From a virus (lineage: Duplodnaviria > Heunggongvirae > Uroviricota > Caudoviricetes), in IMG/VR virus record IMGVR_UViG_2740892230_000001, positions 1-22,636 of that record: 22,636 nucleotides of DNA. One strand, written 5' to 3'. Both the position numbers and the translations under genes were made by a program. The notes beneath the pieces were generated by a model. It did not search any database. It saw only the letters and a program-made list of their open reading frames with translations, and had not been told where the DNA came from. Every line of letters begins with the position of its first letter. Within the stretch, counting starts at the first letter, position 1. Positions 1 through 21,849 of the stretch are shown here, piece after piece.

Positions 1-34
1 GGTTCTTCTGACGGGCGGCGGCACAGGGATGTGC
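1..34. repeat. Left copy of a perfect 34-bp inverted repeat (partner at 1164-1197); the window starts inside it, so it may extend leftward
   Basis: 1-34 ggttcttctgacgggcggcggcacagggatgtgc is the exact reverse complement of 1164-1197. Read on the plus strand it ends a frame with GGG TTC TTC TGA, the same final codons and stop as the antirepressor gene. Confidence 0.8.
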
Positions 35-48
35 AAAACGAAACTATC

Positions 49-60
49 GTGACATGTCAC
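49..60. repeat. 12-bp perfect palindrome GTGACATGTCAC; the 14-mer tcgtgacatgtcac recurs at 21917-21930
   Basis: Direct reading; self-complementary; second identical copy about 21.9 kb away. Confidence 0.7.
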
Positions 61-78
61 AGGCCGCTTTCGCGGCCT
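61..78 (-). terminator. GC-rich stem-loop after the small secreted peptide gene (weak U-tract)
   Basis: AGGCCGC / GCGGCCT 7-bp stem with a 4-nt loop directly after the stop at 86-88; downstream T-run is poor, so terminator function is uncertain. Confidence 0.3.
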
Positions 79-85
79 TGTTCTT

Positions 86-247
86 TTAACGAATGCCACC
101 GCCGCCCGGGCGGGAATCCGCAGAACGCCCACCGCAGCGGGAGCCGTCAGCGGCAGTATCGCTGTCGTGCTGACAACGACCGGCAAAGGCCTGAGTTGAA
201 GCTACCAGAGACAACAAAACGAACAGTGCAGCAAATGCTTTTTTCAT
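86..247 (-). CDS. Small secreted peptide, 53 aa: predicted signal peptide MKKAFAALFVLLSLVASTQAFA, then a 31-aa Gly/Cys-rich mature part
   Basis: Internal Met of track ORF 86..352. Classic n/h/c signal peptide with AFA-G cleavage motif. The longer ORF start would read through the terminator hairpin at 320-339, so the MKK start is preferred. Confidence 0.35.
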   Translation of the reverse strand: MKKAFAALFVLLSLVASTQAFAGRCQHDSDTAADGSRCGGRSADSRPGGGGIR

Positions 248-260
248 TGTGAAATTTCCA

Positions 261-288
261 TCTATAAGCCACCTCAATGTGGCGTCAA
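261..288 (-). promoter_or_regulatory. Putative sigma70 promoter for the peptide gene (TTGACG-16-TATAGA) with an inverted repeat in the spacer
   Basis: Minus-strand TTGACG at 288-283 and TATAGA at 266-261; GCCAC..GTGGC inverted repeat at 268-283; very short leader. Confidence 0.3.
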
Positions 289-319
289 TGAGTGTAGCAC
301 TGACTTTTGTTTCGTCCAC

Positions 320-339
320 AAAAAAGCCCGCGCTGCGGG
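320..339 (-). terminator. Rho-independent terminator of the two-gene operon
   Basis: Minus strand reads GCCCGC-AGC-GCGGGC followed by TTTTT, immediately after the TAG stop at 340-342. Confidence 0.55.
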
Positions 340-885
340 CTATTCCTTCCATTTATCAGAAAAAAGATCTTCTTCTAAAGGCATTGGTTCTGTTTTTGTT
401 TTCTCAAAGAATTGATAACTGATAGTGATTGCTTCCTCTTTAAACTCTTCTTGCTCAGTTATGTTGTGAGCATCTGCGTCAACAAAAAACATAACCAGCG
501 CATCACGATTGTGATTTACCGAATAAACTAAAAAGCAATCACTTGTTGGTATGCATTTTACTTGTACAGACGCTATATTTTTCCATGCATCCCAAGATGA
601 TTTTTTACCAGTGTGTTTTTTATCACTATCTTCTGGAATATAGTCTTGGTTATCGACATGAGTATGCCTGACATTTAGTTTAAGCATTTCTGTCGGACGA
701 GCAAATGCAGCATCTTTACCAAGAGATGGATGGTATCCCGTTTTCCAATACTGGGTAAAGGCATCAGATACTTTCTTCAGCTCAAGATCAGATGCACAAA
801 GGGCCGAGAAATTTTGCGTATGCAACACTCGACCCTTATATCTGACAACTTGATTTTTATCATTCTGCGACGCAGACGAACTCAT
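340..885 (-). CDS. YafO-like toxin-family protein, 181 aa (candidate type II toxin / mRNA interferase)
   Basis: Track ORF 340..912 trimmed to the ATG at 885, which has an AAGGA SD. Segments KLNVRHTHVDN and FLVYSVNH..ALVMFFVDADAH resemble the recalled E. coli YafO pattern (V.H.HL.N ... HLVY ... LLIAIL..H). AT-rich gene with its own terminator. Confidence 0.45.
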   Translation of the reverse strand: MSSSASQNDKNQVVRYKGRVLHTQNFSALCASDLELKKVSDAFTQYWKTGYHPSLGKDAAFARPTEMLKLNVRHTHVDNQDYIPEDSDKKHTGKKSSWDAWKNIASVQVKCIPTSDCFLVYSVNHNRDALVMFFVDADAHNITEQEEFKEEAITISYQFFEKTKTEPMPLEEDLFSDKWKE

Positions 886-1039
886 AATTTTCCTTATTGT
901 TACGAGAATCAAAGAAAGCGCGGGATACGCGACTTGCGTGATCTTTTGTCATAGTAACTTTTACGTACTCTACGCTTCCATTGAAAGAACGTCTTGCGGC
1001 AGCTTGCGCTCTACGCATCTGCAATTTTTCGTTTCGCAT
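860..1039 (-). CDS. 59-aa ORF overlapping the toxin-like gene start by 26 nt; candidate antitoxin or regulator (absent from the ORF track, below the length cutoff)
   Basis: Hand translation: MRNEKLQMRRAQAAARRSFNGSVEYVKVTMTKDHASRVSRAFFDSRNNKENYEFVCVAE, stop TGA at 860-862. GAGG SD 7 nt upstream of the ATG at 1039. Small upstream overlapping gene is the usual antitoxin position. Confidence 0.35.
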   Translation of the reverse strand: MRNEKLQMRRAQAAARRSFNGSVEYVKVTMTKDHASRVSRAFFDSRNNKENYEFVCVAE

Positions 1040-1113
1040 GACATTACCTCATATCTCATAAGTTCATTACACGGATTAATAAAAATGAAACCAATCCGTT
1101 TACCCTTGAGGTA

Positions 1114-1142
1114 ATAGTACGCTATTCACCCACAGTCTGCAA
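1114..1142 (-). promoter_or_regulatory. Putative sigma70 promoter of the toxin-antitoxin-like operon (TTGCAG-17-TACTAT)
   Basis: Minus-strand -35 at 1142-1137 and -10 at 1119-1114. A 9-bp inverted repeat TGAGGTAAT (1107-1115) / ATTACCTCA (1043-1051) overlaps the -10 and the SD. Confidence 0.3.
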
Positions 1143-1163
1143 TCTGTACAGAATTATTTAAAG

Positions 1164-1197
1164 GCACATCCCTGTGCCGCCGCCCGTCAGAAGAACC
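1164..1197. repeat. Right copy of the 34-bp inverted repeat; overlaps the last three codons and stop of the antirepressor gene and contains the hairpin GGCACA-GGGA-TGTGCC
   Basis: Exact reverse complement of 1-34. The hairpin is followed on the minus strand by TTTAAATAATT, a possible terminator for the antirepressor gene. Confidence 0.8.
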
Positions 1198-2131
1198 CTG
1201 CTTTGTCGTTGATGTACTCCGCGTGCGTCTGGATATCACGCAGGCATTTGCTCACACCAACGATGTAACAGAACATGGTGGTCAGCTCCGCCGCCGCGCC
1301 CGATACATCGTGCCCGTCTTCCTGTAACTGGTTCAGCAGATTCATCAGCAGTGAGTTCTCCGTCAGACCGAGAACACCAGACGGAGAATGAATCAGACTG
1401 CGGTAGCCGGGCTTCAATGGATAACCATAACATTTTGTCTGTGTTTTAATTGCCTCACGAAGCGCATCTAACATCTTGACTGCCACTTCATCATTCTCTG
1501 ATGCAGATCCAGCAGGGAGATACTCCCCTTCAAGCGGAACCCGAGCAACAAGAGACAACGCTTCGGCAAATTGATCTTCACCAATTTCTTTGTACGAACA
1601 GCCAAAATGAGATTTCAGTGACGACCACATGGTGATCATCGCCTTAGCCTGTTTTTCTTTTGGCAGAGACTGACCGCGACTCATGACGAGTTGTTTAATG
1701 GCTTCCTGCTGTTCAGTTGTTATTTTACCCGGCAACGCCTTTTTAGCTTTGCGTGGGTTAACCACATGGCCTTTAGTCCAGTACTCGTAGAGCACATCGT
1801 CACACTCTTCCTGATACTGGATTACCTTGTCGCGGATTTCAGGGCGGACTTTGTTAGGGCTGATGGTTTGCAGCCAACCTGCAAGTTTGCGTAAAGCAAG
1901 ACAGATAACCAGACGACGCTGAGTATCACCGGGGAGCTGAATGGTCATTTCGACCATGCAGCTCTTAAAGCGTTGTTGCAACTTGCGGAACTGCGTTTTC
2001 CAGTCCAGCCCCATACCTTCAACGACTGGTTTCATTGGGGTGTATGGTTCGCCGTTATGATTGACAACATAAAGCTCTGCGCCGTGGAATGGCACGTTGA
2101 TAGTAGATACCGCTGTTGCTATACTCGTCAT
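1187..2131 (-). CDS. Phage antirepressor (Ant-like), 314 aa
   Basis: N-terminus NVPFHGAELYVVNHNGEPYTPMKPVVEGMGLDWKTQFRKL fits the phage antirepressor N-terminal family as I recall it. Lies directly downstream of an Arc-like gene as in P22 immI. AGGAA SD 7 nt upstream. Confidence 0.6.
   Translation of the reverse strand: MTSIATAVSTINVPFHGAELYVVNHNGEPYTPMKPVVEGMGLDWKTQFRKLQQRFKSCMVEMTIQLPGDTQRRLVICLALRKLAGWLQTISPNKVRPEIRDKVIQYQEECDDVLYEYWTKGHVVNPRKAKKALPGKITTEQQEAIKQLVMSRGQSLPKEKQAKAMITMWSSLKSHFGCSYKEIGEDQFAEALSLVARVPLEGEYLPAGSASENDEVAVKMLDALREAIKTQTKCYGYPLKPGYRSLIHSPSGVLGLTENSLLMNLLNQLQEDGHDVSGAAAELTTMFCYIVGVSKCLRDIQTHAEYINDKAGFF
2097..2125 (+). promoter_or_regulatory. Strong sigma70-like promoter on the antisense strand inside the 5' end of the antirepressor gene (TTGATA-17-TATACT)
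   Basis: TTGATA at 2097-2102, 17-nt spacer, TATACT at 2120-2125; predicted start near 2132, at the antirepressor start codon. Confidence 0.4.
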
Positions 2132-2206
2132 GTCGTTAATTCCTATACGTAGTTTTACGATACTGAAGCCCTGACGGTCTGGCCACCGTGGGGCTTCGCT
2201 GTTTTA
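2132..2206 (+). ncRNA. Predicted sar-like antisense RNA (about 70 nt) complementary to the antirepressor ribosome-binding site
   Basis: Promoter at 2097-2125, then stem GAAGCCC (2165-2171) / GGGCTTC (2191-2197) followed by GCTGTTTTA. Spans the antirepressor SD (complement of 2140-2144) and start codon. Same arrangement as the known P22 sar RNA. Confidence 0.35.
2181..2194. promoter_or_regulatory. Operator-like motif GGCCACCGTGGGGC between the Arc-like and antirepressor genes (second copy at 2386-2400)
   Basis: CCACCGTGGGGC is repeated exactly at 2183-2194 and 2389-2400; CACCGTG / CACGGTG also at 2413-2419 and 2439-2445. Confidence 0.4.
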
Positions 2207-2371
2207 TGCCACGCTATTCTTCTCACCAGTGAGTCCATACACTTTCCTCAGCTGATAGATAATCTCTGTATTGAACTTTCGGCATTCTTTTTCGCCATTT
2301 CTTTCAATAGCTAACTTCACATCGTCCGGAAAACGAACTCGTCGTTGACACATCTCTTTTGCTTTTTGCAT
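2204..2371 (-). CDS. Arc-like ribbon-helix-helix repressor, 55 aa
   Basis: Track ORF 2204..2392 trimmed to the ATG at 2371 with an AGGAGA SD. RVRFPDDVKLAIERNGEKECRKFNTEIIYQLRKVY follows the Arc pattern (FNLRWP..EVLDLV...NGRSVNSEIYQRV) recalled from P22. Confidence 0.55.
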   Translation of the reverse strand: MQKAKEMCQRRVRFPDDVKLAIERNGEKECRKFNTEIIYQLRKVYGLTGEKNSVA

Positions 2372-2385
2372 TTCATATCTCCTTA

Positions 2386-2400
2386 GCCCCACCGTGGGGC
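2386..2400. promoter_or_regulatory. Operator-like palindrome GCCCCACCGTGGGGC at the predicted start of the arc/ant transcript
   Basis: Sits between the -10 of the minus-strand promoter (2407-2412) and the Arc-like start codon (2371). Confidence 0.4.
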
Positions 2401-6603: not shown

Positions 6604-9320
6604 TATTTAGATCCCCACGAAAAGTAATCTTTAAATTTGTCCATACGTTCGTTATGCAGGCGCTGATACTGCTCATCCAGAGCGCGATGCTTGTCTTTGA
6701 AGTTTCGTATAGCCTGTCCACGCATAATTTCTTCCTGCTCGTACTGCTCCCATTCCTGCTGCATTTTCTTATAAGGTTCCCAATCTTCTAGTGATGGTTC
6801 CCAACGCATAGGACGCCCATGTTTGTTATAAAACGGCTGGACCCGATCGATGCCATTTTCATCCTTAGTTCTTACCATAATGGCGTAATCACCATTACGA
6901 GGTGTTAACACGTCAGGGGTTATGAATAATTCTCCATTAATACGACTCTCAGGGGTTTTTGTCTCAACTACAGGAGCATTACCTGACGTGATCCCAAGCA
7001 ACGTCGGACTGGTTGTTATAATCTCTTTGCGCTCACCGTACATCAGCCGTTCTTTTTCAGCTTTCCACTGCGCCGCCTGCCAGCCTGACGGCCCATATTG
7101 ATAAAGCGCCTCCGGTGCATATTTCATAAACTGCGCTTCTCCGTTAACCTCGCTGATACTCCAGGTGCGGGCTATCTGCTGGTTGGTCATTTGCTTCGCT
7201 ACGTCAGCGTTACCACCAGCAACGCGGTAGTTAATGTCATACAGCGTCTGATAGTCATTACGGAATCTAGCTGCTTCCGGCGTCTGGTCATCCGCAGACG
7301 GATCCCAACGGAACCACTGCGCCATATTGCTGACAGCAGAATTCATCGCCTTGCTGCGATCATTTTTGTACTCTTTTGAACTCTGCGTTGATGCCAATTG
7401 AGCTTTAAGAGCATCGGTCTGGTTGTACGTAAGGTTCTGCGCCTGCTCGATAGCCGCATCAGCAGACATGCCAGAATCAGTTAGTTGCTTAACAGTCAGA
7501 TAAAAACCCTGCATATCCTTCGGCATATTTCCAATAGATGCATTGTCTGTTTCATATAACCGACTAAACAGTTCCGCCGCATTTTTAACCACTTCCTGAT
7601 TGCTGGATCGGGATACTGCTGAAAGCTGCGTGATGACCTGCGAAGGCATTATGCCAGTCTGAGCCACAAGCCGAACAACCCCATCATGAGTGGAGGCATC
7701 ATTAATACGAAAGTTCTGCGCCATTTCTGTGTAATCAGCAGCTTTCTGCATTGACTTGTTGCTTGGGTCTAATTTTTCACCTATTGTCAGCGCCTCATTG
7801 AATCTGCGTGAATCCCGTTGCGCCTGAATTGCTTCATTTGATCTCTGAAGCAATGCAGACAATTTTCCGTAAGCATCGAGTTTTAACGCATAGTGAGGAT
7901 CGTTAACCTCAGGCTTCACTTTCTGCATTTCTTCTTGCTGCTGAGAAGGAGGCAAATACTGAATTGCCTGGAATATTCTCGCGTTATCAATCGCTATATC
8001 CAGTTGATTGATTATTTTATCTGCGTTTTTTCCATACCCCCTGATGATGGTCTCCTGAGCCGGTATATAATCTGGAACCTCACCGTTATATAGCTGTGCC
8101 ATGGTGTTATTAATAGCTGGCTCAAGCTGTTCTAATATTAACTTCCTTTGCTTTTCTATCTGACTATTAGCAAGGTTATCTATTTGATAAATAGTCAGCG
8201 GATCCATTCCAGTTTTATTTTTTCTATATCGGGAAAGCCACCCTTGTGTTTCTGATGGAAGATTTCGGATAAATTCTTCTTCTGATATTTCACCTTTACG
8301 TGGATCACCGACTTTGGCGATCAGTTTATCCACGTTACCCATCCCCCAGTTATATGCTGCTCCGGTCAATATTTCGGAACCGTACTTACCATACAGTTGA
8401 TTTACATAGTCACTGGCGAGCATTTCATGCTGTTGTTCGTCAGTAGGGTTGTATTCAACGCCACGCTTGGCCGCCAGTTCTTTTCCTGTGCCCGGCATTA
8501 ACTGGTATTTCCCCTGCGCTCTCTCTCCAGAAGATGTTATCGGTCCCTCAAGAAGACTACCATCAGGATTAAAATGTCGATCACCTGATTCAACAAGGCG
8601 TATGGCACGCATGTCCATGCCTCCAGAATCATTTTTCTGAAACAGACCATTTAGCCATCCTTCTGGATTGGCAGCGGCATAATTCTTCGCCCGCATTTCT
8701 GTGGCACTGCGATCATCACTTTCTATTTCTTCCAGAATGCGTTCTTGTGACCATCCCCTGGCAGCTCCATATCTGGCAATGGCTACCATTCTGGAATTTC
8801 TGGCTAAAGTGGCAGTTTGCGGGTCATTCCAGGCATCCGCTTCATTTTGTATCCATAATTTTCTCGTTGCCTGATATTGCTCATCTTCATAGGCATTTGT
8901 CTGCCCTATCTCATGTCTGAGAACTCCAGTACTGAACTGAATTTTCTGTGTTCTGGCTTGTTGCAAAAACATATTTCTTGCTGCTTCATCAGTCAATGAA
9001 GCAGCTATTTCTTCCACATCCTGATCAAATCCAGATATGTACTCTTGCCCCTTACCAATCGCATTTTTGCCTTGTTGTGCATAAAAACCGGTTTGAGGGT
9101 TATAAAGACGTTCATTGCTGCGCTGATTAAGCTGAAGGATGGCATCCTGAGACAATGCAACATTCGCTTTCTGCCTGGCTTCACCATATGCCACCGCATA
9201 CTGATCTGCGACATTCGCCAGCACCTGACCTGCTTGAGGAACATCGAAGGTCTGAAAACCACCGGTTTGTACACCACGACTCTCAACCTGACGTCCTGAT
9301 ACTGTTGGTACGACTGGCAT
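6603..9320 (-). CDS. Internal virion protein with lytic transglycosylase domain (gp15-position), about 905 aa
   Basis: SLT-type motifs VESGDRHF ... YQLMPGT ... AAYNWG encoded at about 8300-8635. Start placed at the ATG at 9320 (GGAGG SD, TAATG overlap with the upstream stop) rather than the track start 9395. Confidence 0.7.
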   Translation of the reverse strand: MPVVPTVSGRQVESRGVQTGGFQTFDVPQAGQVLANVADQYAVAYGEARQKANVALSQDAILQLNQRSNERLYNPQTGFYAQQGKNAIGKGQEYISGFDQDVEEIAASLTDEAARNMFLQQARTQKIQFSTGVLRHEIGQTNAYEDEQYQATRKLWIQNEADAWNDPQTATLARNSRMVAIARYGAARGWSQERILEEIESDDRSATEMRAKNYAAANPEGWLNGLFQKNDSGGMDMRAIRLVESGDRHFNPDGSLLEGPITSSGERAQGKYQLMPGTGKELAAKRGVEYNPTDEQQHEMLASDYVNQLYGKYGSEILTGAAYNWGMGNVDKLIAKVGDPRKGEISEEEFIRNLPSETQGWLSRYRKNKTGMDPLTIYQIDNLANSQIEKQRKLILEQLEPAINNTMAQLYNGEVPDYIPAQETIIRGYGKNADKIINQLDIAIDNARIFQAIQYLPPSQQQEEMQKVKPEVNDPHYALKLDAYGKLSALLQRSNEAIQAQRDSRRFNEALTIGEKLDPSNKSMQKAADYTEMAQNFRINDASTHDGVVRLVAQTGIMPSQVITQLSAVSRSSNQEVVKNAAELFSRLYETDNASIGNMPKDMQGFYLTVKQLTDSGMSADAAIEQAQNLTYNQTDALKAQLASTQSSKEYKNDRSKAMNSAVSNMAQWFRWDPSADDQTPEAARFRNDYQTLYDINYRVAGGNADVAKQMTNQQIARTWSISEVNGEAQFMKYAPEALYQYGPSGWQAAQWKAEKERLMYGERKEIITTSPTLLGITSGNAPVVETKTPESRINGELFITPDVLTPRNGDYAIMVRTKDENGIDRVQPFYNKHGRPMRWEPSLEDWEPYKKMQQEWEQYEQEEIMRGQAIRNFKDKHRALDEQYQRLHNERMDKFKDYFSWGSK

Positions 9321-18506: not shown

Positions 18507-18933
18507 ATCAATGACTCCGTACGCAATTAAATTATTACCAATTTAACCACATATGATTTATTTATCGTAGATAGTTGACATTTAACGCACAAATTATTAC
18601 CTTTCAGGTAAGCAAAGGGTTCATTCCGGTTATTAACCTGACTGGCTTGTCGTTAAATTGAACAGGTGGAGTGAGCTTTTATTTTGAGCAGTACGGCGTA
18701 TGGCACATGCGCCGATAGCGGTCTGGATACGTTTAAGGGGCACCCTCCCTTGCTCGGGCAAACGAACCAGGTAGCCGGAATGTGCAAGTCGAGCGGTTTT
18801 ATTCCGCGCACGGGGATTCACCATCCCGGCGATTCGGTGTGACGCCTCGGAAGAGACGAGGGTACAACGATGAGAGCATTTATGGAGCCGCGACAAAGTG
18901 TGGCGCCTTAACAGGCTAAGTGCTCTCAGCGTT

Positions 18934-21215: not shown

Positions 21216-21808
21216 TGATTGCCATCCTGACGTTCTTTGAGTCGCTTCCTGGCTGCTGCTATGCGATCAGCAATTGTCACATTCACATTAACATCCAAGC
21301 GTTCTTTGAATGCGTTGACGTCGACGTGCTTACCAATCAGTTCGAGGTTCTTCACCTTGTCAGGCCATTTAATTTTTTTGAGGATTGTCTCTATCGAATC
21401 CTCGTTCATGTTCATGATGGTCGATGACAGATCAAAGCCGCTAAGCGTAGTGCGCCAGATTTTCGGCCACTCGCGGATTGGCTTAAGGCTCCCATCGTCG
21501 TTGAGGATGTCGATCACGTCCATCTGGTCGATCTCCACCAGGCGCATGAGAACGTAATCAGCACTGACGCGCATTCGTTTGTTGCGCTCCTCCATCAACT
21601 CGGCAATCCGTTTTTGAATACGTTCATCGCGCATCATTACACTGGCTTTAACTGCCGCTGTATTTGGGGAGAATCCTGCGTTAATCGCTGCCTGAGTCTG
21701 GTTTTCAGGCGTTTTGATGTATGACTGGCAATAAGCCTCCTGCATTGCTGTTAGTGGCTTAAATTGCGTTGATTTGCGTTTATAGGTTTTAGGTTCAGCA
21801 GGCATCAT
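21212..21808 (-). CDS. Terminase small subunit, about 198 aa
   Basis: GFSPNTAAVKASVMMRDERIQKRI resembles the small-terminase helix-turn-helix region. Start set at the ATG at 21808 (MMPAEPK); the track's extra 26 N-terminal codons cover the tandem repeat. Confidence 0.65.
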   Translation of the reverse strand: MMPAEPKTYKRKSTQFKPLTAMQEAYCQSYIKTPENQTQAAINAGFSPNTAAVKASVMMRDERIQKRIAELMEERNKRMRVSADYVLMRLVEIDQMDVIDILNDDGSLKPIREWPKIWRTTLSGFDLSSTIMNMNEDSIETILKKIKWPDKVKNLELIGKHVDVNAFKERLDVNVNVTIADRIAAARKRLKERQDGNQ

Positions 21809-21815
21809 AACCACC

Positions 21816-21849
21816 GTGGTAATAGTTACCATTGTGGTAATAGTACCAT
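21816..21849. repeat. Tandem direct repeat (17 + 16 nt), each unit internally palindromic, immediately upstream of the terS start
   Basis: gtggtaatagttaccat (21816-21832) and gtggtaatagtaccat (21834-21849); arms GGTAA/TTACC. CCACCGTGG, the immI operator core, abuts at 21811-21819. Confidence 0.6.

Follow-up and report, generated by a model that had tools for sequence, protein, structure and literature searches.

A Small Upstream Gene and a Predicted Long-Form YafO-Family Toxin Form a Cassette with a Candidate Repressor Operator in a Uetakevirus-Type Phage

Introduction

The yafN–yafO genes of Escherichia coli K-12 constitute a type II toxin–antitoxin pair in which YafO is described as a ribosome-dependent mRNA interferase. 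The RelE/HigB (BECR-fold) superfamily is, more broadly, a collection of mRNA endonuclease toxins. A different organization is found in paaR2–paaA2–parE2 of E. coli O157:H7, a prophage-borne system whose small, largely disordered antitoxin has no DNA-binding domain and whose regulation is left to a separate regulator. Accessory phage genes of the kind known as morons are typically expressed from the prophage. The order of the genes also differs among families, as the antitoxin precedes the toxin in the layout given for the YafO family and the toxin gene comes first, that is, in the reverse order, in HigB systems (PMC11980606).

Here we describe a two-gene cassette carried on the minus strand of a phage-derived stretch of 22,636 nucleotides (IMG/VR record IMGVR_UViG_2740892230_000001), hereafter the window, to which all coordinates refer unless another genome is named. 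A 59-amino-acid (aa) protein is encoded first and a 181-aa protein second. The cassette is akin to yafN–yafO in its homologous toxin, as judged by a Pfam match, a transitive profile link, and a common set of invariant Gly, His, and His residues, and in placing the small gene before the toxin gene, an order that sets it apart from the toxin-first HigB systems. In contrast to yafN–yafO, the toxin is 181 rather than 132 aa long; its basic 59-aa partner falls outside the Phd/YefM (YafN) type; and the pair is phage-borne with a candidate phage operator, whereas yafN–yafO resides in the chromosomal dinB–yafN–yafO–yafP cluster. The 181-aa toxin is only 4–9% identical to HigB2/HigB1 and other RelE-superfamily toxins (PDB 5mje, 7nbu, and 6af3).

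The likeness to paaR2–paaA2–parE2, with which no sequence relationship of the phage cassette was detected, would consist of a RelE/ParE-fold toxin, a helical or disordered partner of about 60 aa devoid of a DNA-binding domain, and the delegation of transcriptional control to another protein. The regulator is the third gene of the operon in that system, whereas here it is presumed to be the general phage repressor, encoded about 27 kb away. A literature search returned no paper on the 59-aa/181-aa protein pair. Weighing the evidence laid out below, we consider it rather probable that the cassette is a two-gene moron of a Uetakevirus-type temperate phage, which would combine a YafO-type toxin with its cognate antitoxin and have its transcription gated by the phage repressor.

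Genomic context and organization of the cassette

Positions 1164–22636 of the window are 99.99% identical to the reverse strand of TL-2011b (NC_019445.1, 32267–10794), an Escherichia phage that resembles phiV10 and epsilon15 of the genus Uetakevirus. phiV10 lacks the cassette itself, and in phiv142-3 its place is taken by other small genes. With its own predicted promoter and terminator and its variable presence among related phages, it has the attributes of a moron: promoter, genes, and terminator form one unit that some Uetakevirus genomes carry and others do not. It departs from the typical moron in that its promoter bears an immunity-type candidate operator and is expected to stay silent in a lysogen.

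The original prediction, made from the letters of the window, had described overlapping 59-aa and 181-aa reading frames, and both frames are indeed present in that layout (Table 1), overlapping by 26 nt at positions 860–885. The small gene thus lies directly upstream of the toxin gene and is predicted to be co-transcribed with it from one promoter to one terminator. The block TATGAGGTGATGTCATG around the Shine-Dalgarno sequence of the 59-aa gene is kept in relatives in a comparative alignment, and a ribosome-binding site, AAGGAAA, stands directly 5′ of the second ATG, that of the 181-aa gene. The clean terminator posited earlier likewise withstands scrutiny: a stem-loop, AGCCCGCAGCGCGGGCT, followed by TTTTTT begins at the toxin stop codon, and the same GCCCGC-loop-GCGGGC arrangement with a T-run reappears at this position in eight related loci, whose loop sequences differ. 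Two more related loci place a different hairpin and T-run right after the toxin stop.

A further hairpin, succeeded by TTTAAATAATT, lies between the antirepressor gene and the cassette promoter, within the inverted-repeat arm, and is possibly a weak terminator. A 54-aa signal-peptide gene (86–250) was considered as a third member of the cassette and rejected; it is located beyond the terminator, and no more than 23 of 56 related loci carry it. When positions 1–2600 were scanned for Rfam families and tRNAs, no match fell inside the cassette.

Table 1. Sequence features of the cassette and its flank, in window coordinates
Feature	Position	Strand	Basis and remarks
Intrinsic terminator	325..341	minus	Scanner; 7-bp stem, 6 G-C pairs, 3-nt loop, T-run
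181-aa ORF	340..885 (ATG 885-883)	minus	ORF read from sequence
59-aa ORF	860..1039 (ATG 1039-1037)	minus	ORF read from sequence
Shine-Dalgarno GAGG of 59-aa gene	1047..1050	minus	7 nt before first ATG, read from sequence
Palindrome TTACCTCAAGGGTAA	1100..1114	.	Covers -10 end and predicted transcription start
-10 TACTAT (TAATAT in most relatives)	1114..1119	minus	Comparative alignment
-35 TTGCAG	1137..1142	minus	TTG-type hexamer conserved across diverged loci
Hairpin GGCACA-GGGA-TGTGCC	1163..1178	minus	Read from sequence; missed by scanner
Inverted-repeat right arm, inner end	1164..1197	.	Left arm 1-34; 34 nt, 100% complementary

The two genes have fared differently in annotation. The TL-2011b record lists the 181-aa gene as gp44, "type II toxin-antitoxin system YafO family toxin," and PGAP names the toxin likewise in E. 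coli chromosomes. Since RefSeq already carries this name, the identification of the toxin is known and that part of the present account is not new. As for the 59-aa ORF, its earlier description as unannotated is apt for strain 13E0780, where PGAP omits it, but not for TL-2011b, whose GenBank and RefSeq records both include it as gp45, a hypothetical protein.

The 181-aa protein: a long-form member of the YafO family

A search with the Pfam profile YafO_toxin (PF13957), the check suggested together with the original prediction, returned a match to the 181-aa protein above the curated threshold (26.3 bits, cut-off 25; E = 8e-6), and the match spans profile positions 3–92 of 101. The margin over the cut-off is small for this protein; among the aligned members of its family, all 23 of 23 match PF13957 at E ≤ 0.01. 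Direct comparisons with E. coli YafO alone were not significant, either by BLASTP (E = 0.36) or by single-sequence hhalign (probability 6%), and for this reason we turned to an exhaustive profile search and a transitive link. The toxin-family profile was run against 1.84 billion representative proteins, only 70 of which were retrieved at E ≤ 1e-3. These reach down to proteins of 131–134 aa (P0102, P0108, P0097, P0107, and P0090; E = 1e-6 to 9e-4), which in turn match E. coli K-12 YafO over their full length at 2e-18 to 5e-13. At the level of sequence profiles, this chain ties the 181-aa protein to the founding member of the family.

Conservation within the family points in the same direction. 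Residues G56, H76, and H140 are invariant across 73–74 aligned sequences, E. coli YafO included, and conservation in the same set is 90% or higher at F43, P64, S115, and Y121. The phage protein nonetheless exceeds the compact, single-domain YafO form of about 130 aa. The N- and C-terminal extensions and the acidic tail that had been noticed from the translation are present relative to the 132-aa YafO, along with an internal insertion of about 35 residues (78–112); the C-terminal addition comprises an acidic helix and a tail that ends in MPLEEDLFSDKW, with the conserved tail motif MPL[DE]E.DLF..KW. In the profile search, the long-form subfamily amounts to about 50 representatives of 150–200 aa.

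An AlphaFold2 model of the 181-aa protein was obtained with high confidence (pLDDT 92, pTM 0.87) and displays the RelE-type alpha/beta fold of the RelE/ParE, BECR-fold superfamily. HigB, YoeB, and RelE rank first in a Foldseek comparison of the model with the PDB, yet at E > 0.1, which is not significant. A structure search of BFVD gave no significant match, and sequence searches of the PDB with the toxin and partner profiles gave none at all. NCBIfam yielded no meaningful match for either the 181-aa or the 59-aa protein, and PHROGs assigned the two solely to families of "unknown function." Scanning genome contigs with the toxin alignment produced 52 pattern matches, 0 of which were confirmed. 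Taken with the Pfam match, the transitive link, and the invariant G/H/H set, the modeled RelE/HigB fold bears out the proposed YafO-like character of the protein, and establishes it, as far as homology and structure prediction reach, as a long-form YafO-family, RelE/HigB-fold predicted toxin.

The 59-aa partner: a genuine gene and a candidate antitoxin

A small ORF of 55–67 aa is situated directly upstream of the toxin gene in 49 of 49 related loci, which together represent about 16 distinct sequences, and both its length and its position are kept in every one of them. The ratio dN/dS for this ORF is mostly 0.15–0.4 and rises to 0.56 in the most diverged pairs; it remains well under 1 across all informative pairs, which signifies purifying selection. 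A profile search for the 59-aa family recovered 38 clusters from several genera of Enterobacterales, all of them unnamed and devoid of a Pfam domain, and the contigs listed for them agree in length with the contigs listed for the toxin clusters. The protein belongs to the orphan family phrog_6685, of unknown function. Clear homologues of the partner have in common a C-terminal motif, FY[DN]..ND..NYEF, and they extend to an 84-aa protein of Arsenophonus nasoniae, whose toxin has no more than 33% identity. Across pairs of loci, toxin identity correlates with partner identity (Spearman 0.74), indicating that the two diverge in step. Judged by its purifying selection and its 49/49 linkage, the 59-aa ORF is a real gene, as originally surmised, that always travels with the toxin gene, and the 26-nt overlap predicts translational linkage between the two.

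These observations leave very little room for the notion that the 59-aa ORF arose by chance and that the 181-aa protein is a degenerate, inactive toxin relic. The marginal Pfam score of the toxin and the omission of the small ORF by PGAP in at least one genome would be in keeping with it, but it is effectively refuted by a dN/dS well below 1 in all informative pairs, by the retention of ORF length and position in every locus, by the spread of the 38 small-protein clusters over several Enterobacterales genera, and by a toxin that retains the family-invariant G, H, and H and folds in silico at a pLDDT of 92.

What kind of protein the gene encodes is a separate question. The prediction that it bears no obvious similarity to YafN was correct: hhalign of the two gave a probability of 0.07%, and a Pfam scan of 35 partner-family members detected no Phd/YefM or other significant antitoxin match. 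The 59-aa protein is thus not an antitoxin of the Phd/YefM (YafN) class. The sole match to an antitoxin family among the 35 members was to ParD_like, in 2 members at E = 0.11. No relative was found among PDB chains. The structural model, of moderate confidence (pLDDT 75, pTM 0.41), comprises helices at residues 2–19 and 32–44 and an extended tail; no helix-turn-helix, ribbon-helix-helix, or AbrB match was obtained, and no DNA-binding domain is visible in the model. A basic, helical, and partly disordered protein with no such domain, the partner probably does not autoregulate its own transcription.

The charges of the two proteins are also atypical. With pI values of 5.8 and 10, respectively, an acidic toxin is combined with a basic partner, the reverse of the polarity of classical RelBE-type pairs. 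A basic partner accompanying an acidic enzyme would suit an arrangement that is not a toxin–antitoxin module at all, in which the RelE-fold protein performs an early lytic function, such as host mRNA shut-off or RNA processing, and the 59-aa protein serves as a cofactor, specificity factor, or nucleic-acid-binding protein. Such an arrangement would also accommodate a partner unlike any known antitoxin, the occurrence of relatives within tail-gene modules of siphovirus-type phages, and a promoter that is predicted to be repressor-gated (see below) and therefore early. We nevertheless hold it to be distinctly improbable. A small upstream gene that overlaps the gene for a RelE-superfamily toxin is a hallmark of type II modules and is the layout listed for YafO, and strict linkage and co-divergence are no less to be expected of an inhibitor than of a cofactor. 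Because of this layout and linkage, the best reading of the 59-aa protein is that of a cognate antitoxin, and we infer this role for it. Were it confirmed, the protein would represent a new antitoxin family for YafO-type toxins, one whose gene is sometimes skipped by annotation pipelines.

A promoter under a phage-wide palindrome

The consensus promoter scanner called no promoter at the cassette, but the -35 and -10 elements are conserved in an alignment of diverged loci, in which the 17-nt spacer between them is fixed in length and variable in sequence. This pattern upholds the earlier proposal that the cassette has its own promoter; on comparative grounds, a predicted sigma-70-type promoter and an intrinsic terminator bracket the gene pair. 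The last T of the -10 element doubles as the first base of the palindrome TTACC-N5-GGTAA.

This palindrome is far more frequent than expected. The window contains four matches at ≤1 mismatch versus 0.38 expected, the further copies being at 18597, 21808, and 21826, and TL-2011b contains 10 exact copies versus 0.05 expected, all of them between annotated genes. Copies flank the CI-like repressor gene gp10 (NC_019445.1, 5306–5890), which encodes an HTH_3 protein, on both sides, at PL-like and OR-like positions; two are at the PL-like promoter and one is in the divergent region between gp10 and the small gp11, in a lambda-like arrangement. Two further copies precede the Bro-N antirepressor gene, and many loci have copies in the region of this gene at distances of about 1140 and 1520 nt from the cassette, on its upstream side. 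The distance from the -35 element to the palindrome is 22 nt at the cassette, at the PL-like promoter, and at a promoter at TL-2011b position 8289. In non-Uetakevirus phage contexts, the region upstream of this gene pair lacks the palindrome.

Because of its 10 copies in TL-2011b, including those around the CI-like repressor gene, the palindrome is a candidate operator of phage-wide scope, and from the positions of these sites we infer that it would be bound by the CI-like repressor of the phage. The Uetakevirus repressor shuts down lytic genes, and its operators were not mapped in the study that describes this activity (PMC9782041). With a phage-repressor operator at its promoter, the pair should be repressed in a stable lysogen; the cassette would be off in the lysogen and on at infection or induction.

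The original prediction had also pointed to an operator-like inverted repeat in the promoter region. Both the palindrome and a 9-bp pair, ATTACCTCA/TGAGGTAAT, that reaches the ribosome-binding site are present; however, the former is not specific to the cassette and the latter forms a hairpin no better than shuffled sequences do. A cassette-specific autoregulatory operator was rejected in view of the 10 genomic copies of the palindrome, its presence at other promoters, and its absence from the cassette in other phage types. The absence of a DNA-binding domain from the partner and the phage-wide distribution of the palindrome both speak against antitoxin-type autoregulation. Also rejected was a leader RNA hairpin of ATTACCTCA and TGAGGTAAT that would hide the ribosome-binding site (z = -0.98 versus shuffles); the predicted transcription start falls inside its left arm.

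The predicted silence of the promoter in the lysogen bears on a more conventional alternative, in which the toxin and its partner are continuously made from the prophage and act in abortive-infection or superinfection-exclusion defence or in prophage-stabilising addiction. The toxin/partner architecture would be identical to that of the reading we favor, many lysogen-expressed morons likewise sit in variable accessory regions and have a promoter and a terminator of their own, and a single operator might repress only partially. This alternative is unlikely in our estimation. The palindrome that covers the -10 element and the start site also stands on both sides of the repressor gene and ahead of the antirepressor gene, and such sites should be shut off in a lysogen; modules of this conventional kind typically show conditional autoregulation, for which the partner offers no DNA-binding domain; and neither protein matches a defence model, with no family of PADLOC-DB v2 matched by the 181-aa or the 59-aa protein at E ≤ 1. 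The role in abortive infection or superinfection defence that had been envisaged from the sequence finds no support; the PADLOC result is blank, and a promoter under repressor control would be predicted to keep the cassette silent in the lysogen.

A proposed mechanism and its implications

According to the favored reading, a moron that pairs a YafO-type toxin with its antitoxin under the control of the phage repressor, transcription would be gated by the phage rather than by the cassette, through the palindrome over the -10 element and start site. Absence or inactivation of the repressor, whether at infection, at induction, or by antirepressor action, would switch the pair on. Unless restrained by its 59-aa partner, which may neutralise the 181-aa RNase by direct binding, the toxin would then cleave mRNA. 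Candidate pay-offs are host shut-off and a repressor-guarded suicide.

A bolder extension, which we rate as more doubtful than likely, is that the CI-like repressor supplies the third component that the module lacks, a pair without an autoregulating antitoxin having been wired directly into the lysis–lysogeny switch by a copy of the immunity operator. If so, induction, a foreign antirepressor, or a fresh infection would fire a YafO-type RNase, and the outcome would be either a timed shut-off of host mRNA or a "repressor-guard" suicide response.

Regulation derived from the phage would shift the biology to be expected of the pair: rather than serving defence or addiction in the lysogen, it would act during infection or induction. 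Independently of the toxin, the TTACC-N5-GGTAA map provides a candidate set of operators for the repressor of Uetakevirus-type phages.

Partners at other YafO-family loci

All other YafO-family loci sampled possess a short upstream ORF of 56–69 aa without a Pfam domain. Included among them are the relatives in siphovirus tail-gene modules, one locus that continues into a HicB-like gene, and one with a short YafO of 134 aa. Some of these ORFs bear no relation to the 59-aa family even at toxin identities of 48–51%. In three loci (L003, L004, and L058) the toxin retains 40–51% identity, whereas an unrelated small protein is encoded upstream (17% in the case of L003 and L004). Because similar toxins are accompanied by unrelated upstream proteins, partner exchange occurs in the family, as far as sequence comparison can tell. 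The Pfam-less small upstream proteins at all sampled loci may constitute an unrecognised, widespread class of minimal YafO antitoxins, in which case many YafO-family toxins would be paired not with YafN but with minimal partners without a DNA-binding domain.

Orientation of the cassette

The 1.13-kb cassette is inverted in the window with respect to the deposited TL-2011b genome. It is bounded by inverted repeats (Table 1), the full arms of which measure 253 bp in TL-2011b at 96.4% identity and are made up of the 76 C-terminal codons that two convergent antirepressor genes, Ant and Bro-N, have in common. The inverted junction of the window occurs in 0 of 5,426 complete E. coli genomes and 0 of 43 IMG/VR loci, and the arrangement represents a rare isomer produced by inversion or else an artefact of assembly. 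Since the arms are nearly identical, the sequence just 5′ of the cassette promoter is the same in both orientations, and our conclusions on the cassette are therefore unaffected by its orientation.

Toxin tail and relatives of the family

An acidic C-terminal helix and a tail motif, MPL[DE]E.DLF..KW, are common to the long-form YafO proteins; in the close family, the motif residues M167, L169, E171, L173, F174, and W178 (toxin numbering) are invariant. The toxin has a pI of 5.8 versus 10 for its 59-aa partner, a charge polarity opposite to that of classical pairs.

Three relatives with 40–51% identity to the cassette toxin (L003, L004, and L058) are encoded within siphovirus-type tail-gene modules, flanked by a DUF6246 gene on one side and a tape-measure gene on the other; their upstream partner, 63 aa in length, bears no relation to the 59-aa family. 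The partner arrangement at a fourth locus, L054, may be of a different type (see table). Even at three further loci (L062, L059, and L061), one of which encodes a short YafO of canonical length (134 aa, PF13957) and the others further members of the family, a Pfam-less ORF of 56–65 aa occupies the upstream position in place of a Phd/YefM-type gene. Minimal partners may be common throughout the YafO family.

Coordinates of features in the window, in phage TL-2011b (L057), and in loci carrying YafO-family relatives
Feature	Location	Strand	Remarks
Toxin acidic C-terminal helix and tail	window 340-450		toxin residues about 146-181
Inverted-repeat arms	window 1-34 and 1164-1416		both sides of cassette
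54-aa protein gene	window 86-250	-	phrog_14503, "membrane associated protein", moron category
ant, P22_AR_N antirepressor gene	window 1187-2131	-	adjoins sar RNA
sar antisense RNA	window 2133-2200	+	Rfam RF00262, 44.8 bits, E 3e-7
Arc-like repressor gene (ORF)	window 2204-2392	-	adjoins sar RNA
TTACC-N5-GGTAA, besides the cassette's copy	window 18597-18611, 21808-21822, 21826-21840		
TTACC-N5-GGTAA	L057 5172, 5234, 5946, 8227, 8289, 34385, 34478		
Toxin-relative loci	L003 3817-4537; L004 3751-4471; L058 1317-2070		
Toxin-relative locus	L054 766-1808		163-aa YafO-family gene; 69-aa ORF upstream; HicB-like antitoxin gene directly downstream
YafO-family loci	L062 1313-1905; L059 817-1606; L061 1295-2034		

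Genomic surroundings of the cassette

The cassette segment (window 35-1163) lies in the orientation opposite to that in the deposited TL-2011b genome, between inverted repeats of 253 bp and 96.4% identity whose arms consist of the C-terminal 76 codons common to the Ant and Bro-N antirepressor genes. This arrangement was found neither in 5,426 complete E. coli genomes nor in 43 IMG/VR loci, and the orientation in the window is therefore either an inversion isomer or an assembly artefact.

The 54-aa gene, whose product has a signal-peptide-like N-terminal segment and two cysteines, is an accessory gene separate from the cassette, since it is located past the cassette terminator and just 23 of the 56 related loci have it. 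Together, the sar RNA, ant, and the Arc-like gene constitute a P22-type immI module within an epsilon15-like phage.

In TL-2011b, the palindrome TTACC-N5-GGTAA recurs across the phage genome between genes: 0.05 exact copies would be expected, and there are 10. They are found on both sides of the CI-like HTH gene (gp10, the presumed phage repressor) and also upstream of the genes for the terminase small subunit and Bro-N, among others. The set represents candidate operator sites of the Uetakevirus-type repressor.
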